This document shows, one piece after another, positions 1 through 8,045 of a DNA stretch of 8,045 nt. Source of the stretch: Escherichia coli (GTDB lineage Bacteria > Pseudomonadota > Gammaproteobacteria > Enterobacterales > Enterobacteriaceae); assembly GCF_003334815.1 (NCBI RefSeq), contig NZ_QOWO01000066.1. One strand, written 5' to 3'. The notes under the pieces were generated by a model. The model made no database searches. It was not told where the DNA came from and was given only the letters and a program-made list of their open reading frames with translations. The position numbers and the translations under genes are program-made. How positions within the stretch are numbered: position 1 is the stretch's first letter; every line of letters begins with the position of its first letter.

Positions 1-78
1 GTTATCGTGAGAGTAATTCATCGGCACGTTAAATCATATCAGGCGTAATACCACAACCCTTAAGTTAGCGCTTATGGG
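1..78. repeat. Left terminal inverted repeat (78 bp), perfect reverse complement of 7968..8045
   Basis: Hand comparison: bases 1-78 (gttatcgtgagagtaattcatcggcacgtt...ttagcgcttatggg) are the exact reverse complement of the last 78 bases of the window. A further ~12 bp inward match imperfectly (about 7 of 12). Confidence 0.93.
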
Positions 79-124
79 GTAAAACCCCGCGTACTGAATT
101 GTGATGGTTTGGTCTCCTGCACCC

Positions 125-259
125 TTTTTTAATTTATATTGTTTATGTGAATATTATGCCTATGTTTATTATTCATATATATTACGGATGAAAATTATTT
201 GATTATTCATAATGTAAATATTTTATTGAATGATATATATCACAGATAATTTTTAATAT
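125..259 (+). promoter_or_regulatory. AT-rich putative promoter/silencing region upstream of cas3
   Basis: Very AT-rich tract with several TATA-like elements immediately upstream of the cas3 start. From established knowledge, enterobacterial type I-E cas promoters are AT-rich and H-NS repressed. No precise -35/-10 assignment could be made by eye. Confidence 0.4.
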
Positions 260-2959
260 ATGCGTAAATATCCTTTAAGTTTACTGAAGGATAAAAATAT
301 TGTGACTTTTTTTGATTTCTGGGGAAAAACCCGACGCGGCGAGAAAGACGGGGGCGACGACTATCACCTTCTTTGCTGGCATTCGCTGGATGTAGCCGCG
401 ATGGGCTATTTAATGGTTAAAAGAAATTGCTTCGGGCTGGCTGATTATTTTCGTCAATTAGGGATTTCTGACAAGGAACAGGCGGCTCAATTTTTCGCCT
501 GGTTGCTGTGCTGGCACGATATTGGAAAATTTGCCCGCTCTTTTCAACAACTTTACCTGCCCCCTGAACTCAAGATTCAGGAAGGTGCCAGAAAAAATTA
601 CGAAAAAATCTCTCATTCAACGCTGGGCTACTGGTTGTGGAATCATTATTTAAGTGAATGTCAGGAGTTACTTCCTTCATCTTCGCTCTCTCCGCGCAAA
701 CTTAGGCGAGTGATAGAAATGTGGATGCCCGTGACGACAGGGCATCATGGTCGGCCCCCTGATCGTATGGATGAATTGGATAATTTTCTGCCTGAAGACA
801 AAGCTGCAGCACGAGATTTTCTCCTTGAAATCAAACCACTGTTTCCGCTCATAGAGATCCCCGCATTCTGGGATGATGATGAGGGCATTGAACTTATAAA
901 ACACCTTTCCTGGTATATCTCTGCAACCGTCGTGCTCGCAGACTGGACGGGTTCGTCAACGCGATTTTTTCCACGCGTCGCACACCCAATGGATATTAAA
1001 GGTTACTGGCAGAAAACTTTAATTCAGGCTCAAAACGCCTTAACCGTCTTTCCTCTAAAAGCAAAAGTCGCGCCTTTCAACGGAATTAATACGCTGTTTC
1101 CTTTTATTGAGAATCCGACACCGTTACAGCAAAAGGTGCTGGATCTGGATATCAGCCAGCAAGGACCGCAGTTATTTATTCTGGAAGATGTGACTGGCGC
1201 AGGTAAAACAGAAGCGGCGCTTATCCTGGCGCACAGGTTGATAGCTGCGGGGAAAGCTCAGGGGCTGTTTTTTGGTCTGCCAACAATGGCAACGGCCAAT
1301 GCCATGTACGATCGGCTGGTCAAAACCTGGCTTGCTTTCTATTCGCCAGAATCCCGCCCCAGCCTGGTGCTGGCACATAGTGCCCGCACATTAATGGACC
1401 GCTTTAATGAATCACTCTGGTCTGGTGATTTAGTCGGGTCAGAAGAACCGGATGAACAAACGTTCAGTCAGGGATGTGCGGCCTGGTTTGCCGACAGTAA
1501 CAAGAAGGCGTTGCTGGCTGAAATTGGCGTCGGCACGCTGGATCAGGCGATGATGGCGGTGATGCCGTTCAAACATAATAATCTGCGGCTTCTGGGGCTG
1601 AGTAACAAAATCCTGCTGGCTGATGAGATCCACGCCTGTGACGCTTACATGTCGTGCATTCTTGAAGGGTTGATCGAGCGGCAGGCGCGTGGCGGAAACA
1701 GCGTTATTTTGCTTTCTGCCACGTTATCTCAACAGCAGCGCGACAAACTCGTCGCTGCCTTTGCGCGGGGTACAGAGGGCCAGCAAGAAGCTCCGTTCCT
1801 GGAAAAGGATGATTACCCCTGGCTGACGCATGTCACGAAATCCGATGTGAACTCACACCGGGTAGCGACGCGCAAAGACGTTGAGCGTAGCGTCAGCGTG
1901 GGTTGGCTTCATAGTGAACAAGAGTGTATTGCGCGTATCGAATCGGCGGTAAGTCAGGGGAAATGCATCGCCTGGATCCGGAATTCTGTCGATGACGCTA
2001 TTAAGGTTCATCGTCAGCTGCTTGCCCGCGGCGTCATTCCTGCTTCCAGCCTTTCACTTTTTCATAGCCGCTTTGCTTTTAGCGATCGCCAGCGAATTGA
2101 AACGGAAACGCTGGCACGCTTTGGTAAATATTGTAGTTTACAGAGAGCGTCGCAAGTCATTGTTTGTACACAAGTAATTGAGCAAAGCGTGGATATTGAC
2201 CTGGACGAAATGATCTCCGACCTGGCCCCTGTTGATTTGCTGATTCAGCGAGCAGGACGATTACAGCGGCATATCCGCGATATTAATGGTCAGTTAAAGC
2301 GTGACGGAAAGGACGAGCGTTCCCCCCCTGAATTGCTGATTCTGGCTCCCGTCTGGGACGACTCTCCTGGCGACGAATGGTTTGGCAGTGCCATGCGTAA
2401 CAGTGCATTTGTCTATCCCGATCATGGGCGAATCTGGCTGACGCAGCGTGTGCTGCGTGAGCAAGGTGCTATTCAGATGCCACACGCAGCCCGGCTTCTT
2501 ATTGAATCCGTCTACGGTGAGGACGTGGTAATGCCGGAAGGATTTGCCCGCAGCGAGCAGGAGCAAGTGGGCAAATATTACTGTGATCGCGCAATGGCTA
2601 AAAAGTTTGTGCTGAACTTCAGGCCCGGCTATGCCGCCAATATCAACGATTACCTCCCGGAAAAACTGTCGACACGTCTGGCTGAGGAGTCTGTTTCCCT
2701 GTGGCTGGCTACCTGTATTGACGGTGTGGTGAAGCCTTATGCCACCGGTGCTCACGCATGGGAAATGAGCGTTGTCAGAGTGCGCCGAAGCTGGTGGAAA
2801 AAACATCGGGATGAGTTTTCTTTACTGGAGGGAGAGGCGTTCAGGCTGTGGTGCATTGAACAGCGACAAGATCCGGAGATGGCAAACGTGATTTTAGTCA
2901 ACGATGACGAAAGTTGCGGGTATTCGGCTACGGAAGGATTGATTGGCAAGGTTGGTTGA
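260..2959 (+). CDS. cas3: Type I-E Cas3 HD nuclease / superfamily-2 helicase (899 aa)
   Basis: Long ORF with ATG at 260 and TGA at 2957-2959. N-terminal HD-domain motifs (HLLCWHSLDVAA, CWHDIGKF), Walker A (DVTGAGKTEAAL) and DExH-like box (LLADEIHACD). Size and position upstream of cse1 match type I-E cas3. No clear Shine-Dalgarno before the ATG, so the exact start is uncertain. Confidence 0.93.
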   Translation: MRKYPLSLLKDKNIVTFFDFWGKTRRGEKDGGDDYHLLCWHSLDVAAMGYLMVKRNCFGLADYFRQLGISDKEQAAQFFAWLLCWHDIGKFARSFQQLYLPPELKIQEGARKNYEKISHSTLGYWLWNHYLSECQELLPSSSLSPRKLRRVIEMWMPVTTGHHGRPPDRMDELDNFLPEDKAAARDFLLEIKPLFPLIEIPAFWDDDEGIELIKHLSWYISATVVLADWTGSSTRFFPRVAHPMDIKGYWQKTLIQAQNALTVFPLKAKVAPFNGINTLFPFIENPTPLQQKVLDLDISQQGPQLFILEDVTGAGKTEAALILAHRLIAAGKAQGLFFGLPTMATANAMYDRLVKTWLAFYSPESRPSLVLAHSARTLMDRFNESLWSGDLVGSEEPDEQTFSQGCAAWFADSNKKALLAEIGVGTLDQAMMAVMPFKHNNLRLLGLSNKILLADEIHACDAYMSCILEGLIERQARGGNSVILLSATLSQQQRDKLVAAFARGTEGQQEAPFLEKDDYPWLTHVTKSDVNSHRVATRKDVERSVSVGWLHSEQECIARIESAVSQGKCIAWIRNSVDDAIKVHRQLLARGVIPASSLSLFHSRFAFSDRQRIETETLARFGKYCSLQRASQVIVCTQVIEQSVDIDLDEMISDLAPVDLLIQRAGRLQRHIRDINGQLKRDGKDERSPPELLILAPVWDDSPGDEWFGSAMRNSAFVYPDHGRIWLTQRVLREQGAIQMPHAARLLIESVYGEDVVMPEGFARSEQEQVGKYYCDRAMAKKFVLNFRPGYAANINDYLPEKLSTRLAEESVSLWLATCIDGVVKPYATGAHAWEMSVVRVRRSWWKKHRDEFSLLEGEAFRLWCIEQRQDPEMANVILVNDDESCGYSATEGLIGKVG

Positions 2960-3056
2960 GATGTCTGCGACAGGACTCTCTGAATAGTTGATACACCGAA
3001 AAGGATGGAAAGATGGACAACCGACCTGGGATGGTCTTTTTTACGAGAGGATGCGT

Positions 3057-4619
3057 ATGAACTCGTTTTCACTTCTGACAACCCCGTGGTTGCCCGTTCG
3101 TTTTAAAGACGGAACGACAGGCAAACTGGCGCCAGTCGATCTGGCGGATGAAAATGTTGTCGATATTTCTGCGCCGCGGGCAGATCTCCAGGGTGCGGTA
3201 TGGCAGTTTTTGCTGGGGCTACTACAAACCAGCTTCGCGCCAAAAGATCATCGTCGTTGGGATGATATCTGGGAAGACGGACTGGAAGCTGAAAAGCTAC
3301 GGGAAGCATTGCAGTCATTAGAACATGCTTTCCAGTTTGGGCCAGATTCCCCTTCATTTATGCAGGATTTCGAGGCGCTCACCGGAGATAAAGTTCCGGT
3401 CGCTTCGCTACTGCCTGAGATTCCCGGCGCTCAAACAACGAAGTTTAATAAAGACCACTTTATCAAGCGTGGTGTAACGGAATACCTGTGCCCACATTGT
3501 TCTGCGTTAGCTCTGTTCTCCCTACAGTTGAATGCGCCGTCAGGTGGCAAAGGCTACCGCACCGGTTTACGCGGCGGTGGGCCGATGACCACTCTGATTG
3601 AATTACAGGAATATCAGGGTAATCAACAAACTCCCTTGTGGCGCAAACTGTGGATCAATGTCATGCCGCAGGATGAAGCCGATTTACCGCTACCCAAAAA
3701 ATTTGACGATCTGGTTTTCCCCTGGCTTGGCCCGACGCGCACCAGCGAACTGGCCGGTGCGGTGGTAACCGATGAGCAGGTCAATAAACTCCAGGCGTAC
3801 TGGGGAATGCCTCGCCGTATTCGTATTGATTTTAATACCACGACAGTCGGCAACTGCGATATTTGCGGTGAGCAGAGCGACGCGCTCCTGAGCCTGATGA
3901 CGACCAAAAATTACGGTGCGAATTATGCCATGTGGCAGCATCCCTTAACGCCTTACCGTGTACCACTTAAAGAGGGTGGCGAGTTTTACTCCGTTAAACC
4001 ACAACCGGGCGGTTTAATCTGGCGTGACTGGTTAGGCCTTATCGAAACGGGTAAATCAGAAAACAATACGGAACTTCCCGCGCTGGTGGTGAAACTCTTC
4101 AATGCCAGCAGTCTCAAGCAGGCAAAAGTGGGCCTGTGGGGATTTGGCTATGATTTCGACAACATGAAAGCGCGCTGTTGGTACGAACACCATTTCCCGC
4201 TGCTGCTCGATAAAAAAGAAGGTCAGATACCGAAGCTGCGGCTGGCTGCGCAAACAGCTTCACGGATTCTAAGTCTGTTACGGAGTGCATTGAAAGAAGC
4301 ATGGTTCTCCGATCCAAAAGGTGCAAGGGGTGATTTTAGTTTTGTGGATATCGACTTCTGGAACAAAACTCAGCATCGCTTTCTGAGGTTAGTGCGCCAA
4401 ATTGAAGAAGGTCAGGATGCGGATGAATTACTCAGCAAATGGAATAAGGAAATTTGGTTATTCGCACGTCAGGATTTTGACGAGCGTGTATTCACCAATC
4501 CTTATGAGCCCGTTGATCTGGAACGCGTCATGACCGCGCGCAAGAAATATTTTACAACATCGGCGGAGAAGCAAAGTGCTAAAGCCGCCAGGGAGAAAAA
4601 GCAGGAGGCTGCTGAATGA
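3057..4619 (+). CDS. cse1: Cascade large subunit Cse1/Cas8e (CasA), ~520 aa
   Basis: N-terminus MNSFSLLTTPWLPVRFKDG resembles the E. coli CasA N-terminus (..NWIPVR..) and an internal GLRGGGPMTT resembles CasA SGLRGGTPVTT, both as I recall them. The stop overlaps the cse2 start. Start chosen at ATG 3057, with GAGG six nt upstream; the ORF-track start at 2988 is a TTG, and ATG 3051 is also possible. Confidence 0.88.
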   Translation: MNSFSLLTTPWLPVRFKDGTTGKLAPVDLADENVVDISAPRADLQGAVWQFLLGLLQTSFAPKDHRRWDDIWEDGLEAEKLREALQSLEHAFQFGPDSPSFMQDFEALTGDKVPVASLLPEIPGAQTTKFNKDHFIKRGVTEYLCPHCSALALFSLQLNAPSGGKGYRTGLRGGGPMTTLIELQEYQGNQQTPLWRKLWINVMPQDEADLPLPKKFDDLVFPWLGPTRTSELAGAVVTDEQVNKLQAYWGMPRRIRIDFNTTTVGNCDICGEQSDALLSLMTTKNYGANYAMWQHPLTPYRVPLKEGGEFYSVKPQPGGLIWRDWLGLIETGKSENNTELPALVVKLFNASSLKQAKVGLWGFGYDFDNMKARCWYEHHFPLLLDKKEGQIPKLRLAAQTASRILSLLRSALKEAWFSDPKGARGDFSFVDIDFWNKTQHRFLRLVRQIEEGQDADELLSKWNKEIWLFARQDFDERVFTNPYEPVDLERVMTARKKYFTTSAEKQSAKAAREKKQEAAE

Positions 4620-5152
4620 GTATTGTAAAAGAGGAGCACAAAGCCACGCTGCGCAAATGGCACGAGGAATTGCAGGAGAAACGTGGCGAACGTGCCAGTC
4701 TGCGGCGTAGTACGACGGTTAATGATGTTTGTCTGACGGATGGATTTCGCCTGTTTCTGAAGAACAGACAAATAAAGTGGCAGGATGAACCTGAGTGGCG
4801 TATCACCGCACTGGCGCTGATAGCCGCAGTTAGCGCCAATGTTAAAGCTATTGATGAACGGCAGCCTTTTGCCGCGCAGCTGGCGGCGGTAATGTCAAAG
4901 GGGCGTTTTACTCGTCTGTCGGCAGTAAAAACACCGGATGAATTACTGCGCCAGTTACGCCGCGCAGTCAGATTATTAAACGGTTCCGTCAATCTTGACT
5001 CTCTGGCAGAGGGGGTCTTCCGTTGGTGCCAGGAGAGCGACGACCTGCTCAATCATCACCGCCGCCAGCAGCGGCCAACCGAATTTATCCGTATCCGCTG
5101 GGCGCTGGAATATTACCAGGCTGGCGACGCCGATAACGAACAAAATCAATAA
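4616..5152 (+). CDS. cse2: Cascade small subunit Cse2/Cas11 (CasB), 178 aa
   Basis: ATG at 4616 overlaps the cse1 stop (ATGA), with AGGAGG about 8 nt upstream. Size, basic/helical composition and position between cse1 and the cas7 start are as expected for Cse2. Assignment is mainly by synteny and size. Confidence 0.8.
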   Translation: MSIVKEEHKATLRKWHEELQEKRGERASLRRSTTVNDVCLTDGFRLFLKNRQIKWQDEPEWRITALALIAAVSANVKAIDERQPFAAQLAAVMSKGRFTRLSAVKTPDELLRQLRRAVRLLNGSVNLDSLAEGVFRWCQESDDLLNHHRRQQRPTEFIRIRWALEYYQAGDADNEQNQ

Positions 5153-5163
5153 AGGACTATCTC

Positions 5164-5208
5164 ATGACAACATTTATTCAGCTTCATTTGTTAAGGGGCG
5201 GCTTATGA
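5164..5208 (+). pseudogene. cas7: cas7 (casC/cse4) remnant: 14-codon stub MTTFIQLHLLRGGL*
   Basis: ATG at 5164 preceded by AAAGGA at the expected spacing. The first residues (MTTFIQLHLL) resemble the E. coli CasC N-terminus (MSNFINIHVL, as I recall it). The ORF ends after 14 codons at a TGA that overlaps the cas5 ATG. A native cas7 is about 360 codons. Confidence 0.5.
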
Positions 5209-5526
5209 GCCAATATCTGATTTTTCAGCTTCATGGGCCGATGGCGTCCTGGGGTGTCGATGCTCCAGGTGAAGTTCGTCATACCCATGAACTTCCTTCG
5301 CGCTCAGCATTGCTGGGGCTACTGGCTGCCGGGGTAGGGATTCGGCGTGATGATACCGAACGCTTAAACGCGTTTAATCGCCACTATTCACTGGTGGTTT
5401 GCGCCAGCCGTAACCCGCGCTGGGCACGGGATTATCACACGGTCCAGATGCCAAAAGAGGTGCGTAAAGCACGTTATTTCAGCCGTCGCGAAGAGTTGAG
5501 CGACCCTGATCCGCACGCACATTCCG

Positions 5527-6605
<1,079 letters not shown>

Positions 6606-6701
6606 GTTATCCGTTCTTTAAAAATAAGGAAATGTTTTAATTTAGTTGGTAGATTGTTGATGCGGAATAAATTTGTTTAAAAACAGTTATGTATGCTTAG
6701 T
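6606..6701 (+). promoter_or_regulatory. CRISPR leader (AT-rich, between cas2 and first repeat)
   Basis: 96-bp AT-rich segment immediately upstream of repeat 1 and downstream of cas2, the canonical I-E leader position that carries the array promoter and IHF/integration signals. Confidence 0.8.
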
Positions 6702-7949
6702 GTGTTCCCCGCGCCAGCGGGGATAAACCGAACATTAAATTGCCGTGCTGGATGAATCGCGGGTGTTCCCCGCGCCAGCGGGGATAAACCCTGGATCAGC
6801 TGGTTCAATCGTTTACAGCACTGGTGTTCCCCGCGCCAGCGGGGATAAACCGGCAGTAAATTATTTGACCTCGTTGATAATCCCGTGTTCCCCGCGCCAG
6901 CGGGGATAAACCGCCGGTGCAACTGATATTGATAAACGTCGACTCGTGTTCCCCGCGCCAGCGGGGATAAACCGACACCCGACCGCTAACCGATTTCGTT
7001 ACAGTAGTGTTCCCCGCGCCAGCGGGGATAAACCGTGTATCACCGAAAGAATGGTTTGACGCGCAGGGTGTTCCCCGCGCCAGCGGGGATAAACCGACGT
7101 CTATCATTTTCAGTACAAGCTGGGTTTTGTGTTCCCCGCGCCAGCGGGGATAAACCGGACGATCCCGAGATTCACAGAGTTACAACTAAGTGTTCCCCGC
7201 GCCAGCGGGGATAAACCGGAAATTTTCACATGGATTGTAGCCCTGTATATGTGTTCCCCGCGCCAGCGGGGATAAACCGGCCAGGCGGTCGGATTAGGTG
7301 CAAATCAAAATGTGTTCCCCGCGCCAGCGGGGATAAACCGCGCTGGCGGTGCGAGTGCTGGAGGCGCTGAAAGTGTTCCCCGCGCCAGCGGGGATAAACC
7401 GCAGGAGACGGCCAGCCGGAACGGCGGCGGCGTGTGTTCCCCGCGCCAGCGGGGATAAACCGTCGGGCGGCTCTGGTGTTCCTGACATGGCGGCGTGTTC
7501 CCCGCGCCAGCGGGGATAAACCGAATTTGCATCACATAGGGGCGAGGCTCAGTGAGTGTTCCCCGCGCCAGCGGGGATAAACCGTTCTTGCGGGTGTTGC
7601 AAATATTCTCCACGTAGTGTTCCCCGCGCCAGCGGGGATAAACCGCCTGTTTTTTGTGCGGGGAATTATGGGGGAATGTGTTCCCCGCGCCAGCGGGGAT
7701 AAACCGTTATACTGATTTTGATTTGTATTTCGGTCGCTGTGTTCCCCGCGCCAGCGGGGATAAACCGACACGCCCTGCCGTATTTACTGACGCGCAGGAG
7801 TGTTCCCCGCGCCAGCGGGGATAAACCGCCGCGCAAATCCAGCGAGCCGCCGACGCTCAGTGTTCCCCGCGCCAGCGGGGATAAACCGTTGCAAACCGTG
7901 GCAAACGCAATTAACAAAAAGTGTTCCCCGCGCCAGCGGGGATAAACCG
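6702..7949 (+). CRISPR. Type I-E CRISPR array: 21 x 29-bp repeats (GTGTTCCCCGCGCCAGCGGGGATAAACCG), 20 unique spacers
   Basis: Repeat starts at 6702, 6763, 6824 and so on at 61-bp period to 7800, then 7860 and 7921. Spacers are 32 bp except spacer 19 (7829-7859, 31 bp). Repeat 2 ends in C instead of G (6791). The repeat has the CCCCGC/GCGGGG stem and ATAAACCG 5-prime handle typical of I-E crRNA. Transcribed on + from the leader, so the newest spacer is 6731-6762. Confidence 0.97.
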
Positions 7950-7967
7950 AGTTAAGAGGGGGTTTTT

Positions 7968-8045
7968 CCCATAAGCGCTAACTTAAGGGTTGTGGTATTA
8001 CGCCTGATATGATTTAACGTGCCGATGAATTACTCTCACGATAAC
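7968..8045. repeat. Right terminal inverted repeat (78 bp), reverse complement of 1..78
   Basis: Hand comparison shows an exact reverse-complement match to bases 1-78. It begins 18 bp after the last CRISPR repeat. Confidence 0.93.

Follow-up and report, generated by a model that had tools for sequence, protein, structure and literature searches.

Organization of the locus

The window, by which we mean the whole 8,045-nt stretch of DNA analysed here, holds a type I-E CRISPR-cas locus of Escherichia coli. Strains ETEC4073 and NCTC9100 carry loci with which it is 97-98% identical from end to end. A decayed cas operon is followed by an AT-rich leader and by an array of repeats and spacers, and the locus is bracketed by IS421 ends (Table 1). 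IS421 is likewise annotated on both flanks of the locus in ETEC4073 and NCTC9100, where the matching array carries the annotation "CRISPR".

The repeat was predicted to fold into a 7-bp GC hairpin (-15.2 kcal/mol, z = -3.2). One copy, repeat 2, has C in place of G as its last base, and this variant copy precedes spacer 2. The array displayed the features by which a type I-E array is recognized, namely direct repeats of ~29 nt with a palindromic core, unique spacers of ~32 nt, an AT-rich leader and a 5' AWG motif. A scan of positions 6500-8045 against Rfam gave no family at or above its gathering score; this is not a defining criterion and is no argument against the I-E assignment. The leader lies where the annotated E. 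coli loci (ETEC4073, NCTC9100) also have it and, since it sits between cas2 and the array, the plus strand is the transcribed strand. Spacer 1 adjoins the leader and is therefore the most recent acquisition.

The spacers of the array are common to many E. coli strains, with spacers 19 and 20 being present in many E. coli arrays, and the lineage carrying this spacer set is seen mainly in pig ETEC strains and NCTC9100. The data are best explained if the repeats and spacers of the window make up the leader-proximal portion of the cas-adjacent I-E array of an E. coli strain with the non-K12 cas variant.

Table 1. Features of the window, with the best candidate protospacer of each spacer (identical positions, upstream trinucleotide and location). 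L numbers are our handles for the matched elements and are followed, where given, by positions within them.
Feature	Position	Strand	GC content	Remarks
IS421 end, inverted copy	1-88			Reverse complement of 7959-8045, 97.7%
Decayed type I-E cas operon	260-6605	+		NCBIfam matches and alignment to the intact NCTC9100 and ETEC4073 operons
cas3	260-2959	+		Full length
cse1	3057-4619	+		Full length
cse2	4616-5152	+		Full length
cas7 remnant	5164-5194	+
cas5 5' fragment	5205-5509	+		About 305 nt kept
cas1	5508-6315	+		Without its first 116 nt
cas2	6312-6605	+		Full length
AT-rich leader	6606-6701	+		Between the cas2e stop (6605) and repeat 1 (6702)
Type I-E CRISPR array	6702-7949	+		21 repeats of 29 nt, 20 spacers, strict 61-nt period
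Repeat	21 copies within 6702-7949	+		GTGTTCCCCGCGCCAGCGGGGATAAACCG
Spacer 1	6731-6762	+	47%	26/32, ATG; tail gene, P2-like prophage of E. coli 40EC (L006 32526-32557)
Spacer 2	6792-6823	+	47%	Weak and uncertain, 24/32, AGG; capsid-scaffold gene, 40EC P2-like prophage (L006)
Spacer 3	6853-6884	+	38%	30/32, ATG; GPW/gp25 baseplate gene, RM10042 prophage (L007)
Spacer 4	6914-6945	+	47%	31/32, ATG; antisense to tail-sheath gene, SE11 prophage (L010 20001-20032)
Spacer 5	6975-7006	+	50%	26/32, ACG; baseplate J gene, myovirus family (L005, L007, L010)
Spacer 6	7036-7067	+	50%	31/32, ATG; intergenic, upstream of terminase genes, myovirus family (L007 20001-20032, L010)
Spacer 7	7097-7128	+	38%	32/32, ATG; terminase large-subunit gene, 40EC P2-like prophage (L006 20001-20032)
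Spacer 8	7158-7189	+	44%	No credible protospacer (BLAST of phages, plasmids and complete E. coli genomes)
Spacer 9	7219-7250	+	34%	Weak, 23/32, ATG; myovirus family (L007, L010)
Spacer 10	7280-7311	+	50%	No credible protospacer (BLAST of phages, plasmids and complete E. coli genomes)
Spacer 11	7341-7372	+	68.8%	See text
Spacer 12	7402-7433	+	78.1%	See text
Spacer 13	7463-7494	+	68.8%	See text
Spacer 14	7524-7555	+	50%	No credible protospacer (BLAST of phages, plasmids and complete E. coli genomes)
Spacer 15	7585-7616	+	44%	27/32, ACG; tail-tube gene, vB_EcoM-705R4
Spacer 16	7646-7677	+	47%	27/32, ATG; lambdoid prophage end, E. coli DETEC-P169 (L054 7999-8030)
Spacer 17	7707-7738	+	31%	29/32, ATG; prophage tail-fibre gene (L008); 27/32 in SE11 prophage
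Spacer 18	7768-7799	+	59%	No credible protospacer (BLAST of phages, plasmids and complete E. coli genomes)
Spacer 19	7829-7859	+	71%	31 nt; weak and uncertain, 27/31, GTG; hypothetical gene, Edwardsiella phage Edno5, E = 1
Spacer 20	7889-7920	+	38%	Weak, 25/32, ATG; portal gene, HK97-like prophage (L008 6504-6535)
IS421 end	7959-8045			Begins 9 nt past repeat 21, inside spacer 21

The cas operon

Comparison with the NCTC9100 operon revealed two internal deletions. The first one has removed 1,022 bp, corresponding to nearly all of cas7, with the junction at about 5192-5194, and the second one 1,186 bp, reaching from within cas5, whose 3' part is lost, across the entire cas6e gene into the beginning of cas1 (junction at about 5508-5509). 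The cas6e gene is consequently absent from the operon. The two deletions were found together in none of the 5,426 complete RefSeq E. coli genomes. Strain 52F4 has the same cas7 deletion, and other E. coli strains carry different cas deletions.

Cas3 and Cse1 passed the generic I-E models but scored far below the cut-offs of the K-12-type NCBIfam models (425 bits against 569 for Cas3 and 111 against 576 for Cse1), which fits the non-K12 variant, Cas-EO. Judged by its gene content, the locus would clearly be I-E by descent, with an incomplete cas set.

The full gene set for functional immunity (a complete Cascade of Cse1, Cse2, Cas7, Cas5 and Cas6e, together with Cas3 and intact Cas1-Cas2) was not found in the operon. 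As Cas6e and Cas7 are missing, neither crRNA processing nor Cascade assembly is expected, and the truncated Cas1 argues against new acquisition. The array is thus probably neither processed, nor used for interference, nor extended, and would represent a fossil record. The decayed operon agrees with the long-held view that active immune selection does not act on these E. coli arrays.

Candidate protospacers

We have searched for the sources of the spacers by BLAST, using as query the spacers concatenated with stretches of N between them; the databases comprised 50,697 phage records, 72,556 plasmids and 5,426 complete E. coli genomes. In a second stage, every spacer was aligned without gaps to each of the matched elements. 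When shuffled spacers were aligned to a 40-kb locus as a null test, they mostly reached 19-20 identical positions out of 32, with a single one in 400 rising above 22/32 (at 24/32). For 15 of the 20 spacers a candidate protospacer was obtained, in each case in a temperate phage or prophage; ten of the matches reached at least 26/32. The mismatches of spacers 3, 5 (all six of them) and 17 fell in one codon phase, and those of spacer 12 mostly at third codon positions. Such single-phase mismatches are expected for diverged homologues and not for chance matches.

Most of the spacers other than spacers 11 and 12, described below, were traced to E. coli prophages of 48-50% GC. One myovirus family with a lambda-type head and a P2-type tail, with phage vB_EcoM-705R4 and the prophages of E. 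coli RM10042 and SE11 as members, was the source of spacers 3, 4, 5, 6, 15 and 17 and, weakly, of spacer 9, for which the null gave one of 400 shuffled spacers at 23/32 or better. Spacer 3 also matched vB_EcoM-705R4 phages, the SE11 prophage and ST131 prophages at 29/32, and spacer 15 matched the RM10042 and SE11 prophages at 23/32 with ATG upstream. The P2-like prophage of E. coli 40EC was the source of spacers 7 and 1 and, weakly, of spacer 2. The protospacer of spacer 16 adjoins a tRNA-Pro gene. For spacer 10, a peptide similarity in one element (L004) was discarded, its score of 38 not being significant. Five of the spacer sequences were looked for in the full text of papers, with no occurrence.

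Motif flanking the protospacers

The preliminary description of this DNA had expected an AAG-type PAM. This motif preceded none of the 15 best matches, which instead had ATG directly 5' of the protospacer in 11 cases (8 cases if the ten matches of at least 26/32 are taken by themselves). The background frequency of ATG being 1.5%, the binomial probability is about 1e-17 for the 15 and about 1e-13 for the 10. The PAM itself was found on the expected 5' flank, and ATG lies within the known AWG consensus.

The ATG preference is already published biology of the non-K12 E. coli I-E variant: its natural spacers most often have the motif CAT (that is, ATG), and CAT/CWT has been published for it (PMC3737337). 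According to Diez-Villasenor et al., K-12 uses CTT (AAG), and the O157:H7 Cas1-Cas2 accept both motifs (PMC3737337). In K-12 interference assays, ATG was permissive and ACG and GTG were not (PMC3737346). An upstream ACG was seen in some relatives for spacers 5, 11 and 15, which counts against our best explanation of the locus.

GC content of the spacers

The 20 spacers lay exactly where the preliminary description had placed them, between 6731 and 7920, and its by-eye impression that spacers 11-13 are unusually GC-rich was borne out by counting: they have 68.8, 78.1 and 68.8% GC, against a mean of 50.0% (sd 13%) for all 20 spacers. The low-GC spacers that it had set against them were also correctly named (spacer 17, 31.2%; spacer 20, 37.5%). 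Spacer 19, which it did not mention, is GC-rich as well.

The run of three GC-rich spacers gave p = 0.046 when the spacer order was shuffled, and the lag-1 autocorrelation of spacer GC was 0.36 (p = 0.028). The clustering of spacers 11-13 hence exceeds chance only modestly. In DNA of about 50% GC, for which we took positions 1-6600 of the window, a GC count of 22/32 is reached by 3.6% of the 32-mers and one of 25/32 by 0.17%. The corresponding values in Mu-like phage DNA of 55% GC are 11% and 0.6-0.9%.

Sources of the GC-rich spacers

Spacer 12 matched a portal gene of the Mu gp29 type (DUF935) at 28/32, both in Klebsiella phage Kp4866-3 and in a Mu-like prophage on Klebsiella plasmids. A codon-degenerate scan of IMG/VR added 27 further Mu-like contigs at 26-29/32, in stretches of 54-60% GC. 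All of these matches carry ATG upstream, this being the Met codon of the encoded peptide MQETASRNGGG.

For spacer 11, an exact IMG/VR scan returned no match. Its frame 3, the one with the best codon usage, encodes LAVRVLEALK, and the sole match of this peptide in IMG/VR, as well as its sole match among 100,044 species genomes, was a GemA/gp16 gene (PF06252) that belongs to a Mu-like prophage of Aeromonas piscicola. GemA relatives in Mu-like contigs of 59-63% GC read DALASRVLEALK. When relatives of the Aeromonas GemA were searched for in IMG/VR, the same contig was recovered and nothing further. At the DNA level, spacer 11 agreed with the GemA relatives at 24/32, with GAC-G upstream; the synonymous codon GAT would give ATG. 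We hold it to be fairly probable that spacer 11 comes from the gemA gene of a Mu-like phage. The attribution is less well supported than that of spacer 12, because the search pattern forced amino-acid identity and because the peptide also occurs by chance in soil contigs: a metagenome scan with LAVRVLEALK gave seven of these, in unrelated contexts, which we judged to be chance matches.

The genes matched by spacers 11 and 12 are of the Mu type and transcribed rightward, and the match is in both cases to their sense strand. Phage Mu itself (52% GC) matched no spacer at 22/32 or better. Matches of spacers 11 and 12 to Mycobacterium and Arthrobacter phages appeared in permissive BLAST searches with E values of 1-5 and were dismissed as GC-driven chance.

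Spacer 13 yielded no source in the exact IMG/VR scan or in the exact metagenome scan (repeat context excluded), no match in codon-degenerate IMG/VR scans covering two of the three wobble phases, and none in the phage, plasmid or E. coli BLAST searches. A resemblance between its peptide SGGSGVPDMA and the motif SGGTGTPDIA of Mu-like tail sheaths was rejected, as it scored 41 where the null reached up to 45, and the nucleotides agreed at only 20-21/32 with TTC upstream. Nothing shows that the whole trio of spacers 11-13 is Mu-like, with spacer 13 being without a source.

A GC-rich block would follow from the composition of Mu-like phages of the Klebsiella and Aeromonas kinds (54-63% GC), the sampled segments being in addition GC-rich locally. 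Alternatively, the run could be a coincidence, in which case spacers 11-13 would stem from elements of ~50% GC and would owe their composition to local fluctuation. The permutation p-value is indeed only 0.046, a count of at least 22/32 occurs in 3.6% of the 32-mers of 50% GC DNA, the equally GC-rich spacer 19 is isolated, and spacer 13 has no source. We nonetheless regard coincidence as unlikely, given that the spacer 12 match recurs with ATG in 29 independent records of Mu-like phages having 54-60% GC, that spacer 11 leads to gemA in Mu-like phages with 59-63% GC, and that three successive 32-mers with at least 22/32 GC would be drawn from 50% GC DNA at a rate of about 5e-5 per position.

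The preliminary description had suggested that the contrast in composition reflects different sources, for instance high-GC plasmids or phages for the GC-rich spacers and AT-rich elements for the others. The general part of this proposal held: the spacers derive from several mobile elements, with a GC-richer, Mu-like source for spacer 12 and probably for spacer 11. The plasmid part did not, despite the roughly 14% of plasmid-derived spacers reported for E. coli cas-adjacent arrays (PMC10101085) and despite the matches of spacer 12 to three Klebsiella plasmids. These fall inside a Mu-like prophage that has integrated into the plasmids and contains transposase, GemA, Mor, portal and sheath genes. 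A permissive search of the 72,556 plasmids with the spacers left without a source returned only two chance-level matches, to Streptomonospora and Cupriavidus plasmids (E of about 3), which were rejected, and no plasmid backbone match was retained. As to AT-rich elements, spacer 17 occurs in ordinary prophages of about 48-49% GC, in which 5-7% of the 32-mers are as AT-rich as this spacer. An origin from high-GC plasmids on the one hand and AT-rich elements on the other is accordingly very improbable.

We have also considered that the GC-rich spacers might have been taken from the host chromosome, which Cas1-Cas2 can sample. Among the 5,426 complete E. coli genomes, 112 matched any of nine spacers that included spacers 11-13; this speaks against a core-genome source, which would match thousands. 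Among the 60 matches listed, those of spacers 11-13 were all in annotated CRISPR. In ETEC4073, the closest complete genome and a different one from that of the actual host, the array was the one place to which any of the 20 spacers matched. With these data, self-derivation is hardly conceivable.

No known Mu-like genome among those examined has the protospacers of both spacer 11 and spacer 12: where spacer 12 matches, in genomes of the Klebsiella type, the GemA gives no match to spacer 11, and the spacer 12 motif is absent from the 18.8 kb examined of the Aeromonas-type contig that matches spacer 11. It is conceivable, as a tentative proposal that we hold to be rather doubtful, that spacers 11-13 record one burst of primed adaptation against a single mosaic Mu-like phage, not yet sequenced. 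Such a phage would join a Klebsiella-type portal gene to an Aeromonas-type gemA gene and would once have infected this E. coli lineage. If this were true, the burst would imply exposure of the lineage to phages that are now found mainly in other genera.

Discussion

The closest known system is the cas-adjacent I-E array of E. coli (CRISPR2.1 of Diez-Villasenor and Mojica) in its non-K12, leader-A-associated variant Cas-EO. The array studied here shares with it the 29-nt hairpin repeat, the 32-nt spacers, the 61-nt period, the location downstream of cas2 and the AT-rich leader. In leader-A arrays the ATG (CAT) motif dominates (PMC3737337), as it does here. Unlike the usual CRISPR2.1 locus, the one in the window has two internal cas deletions, and IS421 both brackets it and interrupts the array.

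With the I-E system of E. coli K-12 (CRISPR I) it has in common the subtype, a nearly identical repeat and the rule that the last base of the repeat derives from PAM position -1 (PMC3737346). It differs in that K-12 acquires spacers almost solely beside AAG (CTT) and not ATG (PMC3737337), whereas here ATG flanked 11 of 15 protospacers and AAG none, and in the scores of Cas3 and Cse1, which lie below the K-12-type cut-offs.

Spacers of the same source are adjacent in the array (3-6, 11-12 and 1-2). This order suggests that a single encounter may each time have yielded several spacers in a burst, in the manner of primed adaptation. The array has in common with type I-E primed adaptation that same-source neighbours mostly match one strand of the source; contrary to its expectation, spacer 4 lies on the strand opposite to that of spacers 3, 5 and 6, and spacers 11 and 12 match different genomes.

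We consider it likely that the locus is an ordinary I-E array that has recorded temperate phages, with a Mu-like origin for two of the spacers in its GC-rich block, and that is now inactive. In this history, Cas1-Cas2 would have cut 32-nt spacers from invading DNA beside an A-T/A-G motif and inserted them at the leader end. The temperate phages so recorded would be those of the myovirus family (spacers 3-6, 15, 17 and perhaps 9), a P2-like prophage (7, 1 and perhaps 2), a lambdoid prophage by its end (16) and Mu-like phages (12 and probably 11). These features match published knowledge of E. coli I-E systems throughout (PMC3737337; PMC10101085), and the biology is known.

The spacer set provides a readable temperate-phage history of one E. 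coli lineage, in which a GC outlier among the spacers can point to a specific class of phages. The data also confirm, independently, the presence of ATG beside natural spacers of the non-K12 I-E variant, and they add one more E. coli array that has been retained after the loss of its machinery.

The CRISPR-cas locus and its boundaries

The CRISPR-cas locus was flanked on both sides by an IS421 end, the two copies being inverted with respect to each other. The downstream copy began 9 nt past repeat 21 of the type I-E array, within what was formerly spacer 21. In E. coli ETEC4073, the array continues on the far side of the IS421, and therefore the 20 spacers of the window do not make up the complete array but just its leader-proximal portion.

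Alignment of the cas operon to those of ETEC4073 and NCTC9100, two E. coli strains in which it is intact, revealed two internal deletions. The 1,022-bp cas7 deletion was also present in E. coli strain 52F4, and further strains among the complete RefSeq genomes carried different cas deletions. The two deletions were found together in none of the 5,426 complete RefSeq E. coli genomes.

Coordinates of the features described (window positions, except for those in L009, the locus of Edwardsiella phage Edno5)
Feature	Coordinates	Remarks
IS421 end, upstream	1-88
cas-operon region with both deletions	5164-5509
Deletion 1, 1,022 bp	junction at about 5192-5194	almost whole cas7 missing
Deletion 2, 1,186 bp	junction at about 5508-5509	3' part of cas5, entire cas6e and first 116 nt of cas1 missing
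Repeat 2	6763-6791
Spacers 3-6	6853-7067
Spacer 19	7829-7859
IS421 end, downstream	7959-8045
Spacer 19-like copy in Edno5	L009 20001-20031	GTG upstream
Spacer 19-like copy in Edno5	L009 20121-20151	GTG upstream

Origin of the spacers

Spacers 19 and 20 were common to many E. coli arrays. Spacer 19, with 31 nt instead of the usual 32, had a GC content of 71%, on par with that of spacers 11 and 13; its GC richness had gone unmentioned in the preliminary description, which had flagged spacers 11-13. A sequence resembling spacer 19 was present twice in one hypothetical gene of phage Edno5, the second copy being offset from the first by 120 nt.

Variants of spacer 15 (31/32) and of spacer 16 (26/28) were located within the CRISPR arrays of many other E. 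coli strains. These variants may be diverged copies or, alternatively, may have been acquired independently from one and the same region of a protospacer. Spacer 15 also matched (31/32) the PLSDB record NZ_OL790696.1, a 4.8-Mb E. coli record listed as a plasmid, and this match most likely corresponds to a chromosomal CRISPR array rather than to a plasmid protospacer.

The terminal base of repeat 2 was a C and not a G. In I-E systems, the last repeat base is a copy of PAM position -1 (PMC3737346), and thus spacer 2 may have been acquired beside a non-G motif. The sole candidate protospacer of this spacer was a weak match (24/32).

The four consecutive spacers 3-6 all matched a single family of myovirus prophages (lambda-type head, P2-type tail), spacers 3, 5 and 6 in the gene-sense orientation and spacer 4 on the opposite strand. 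This looks like an acquisition burst from one phage.
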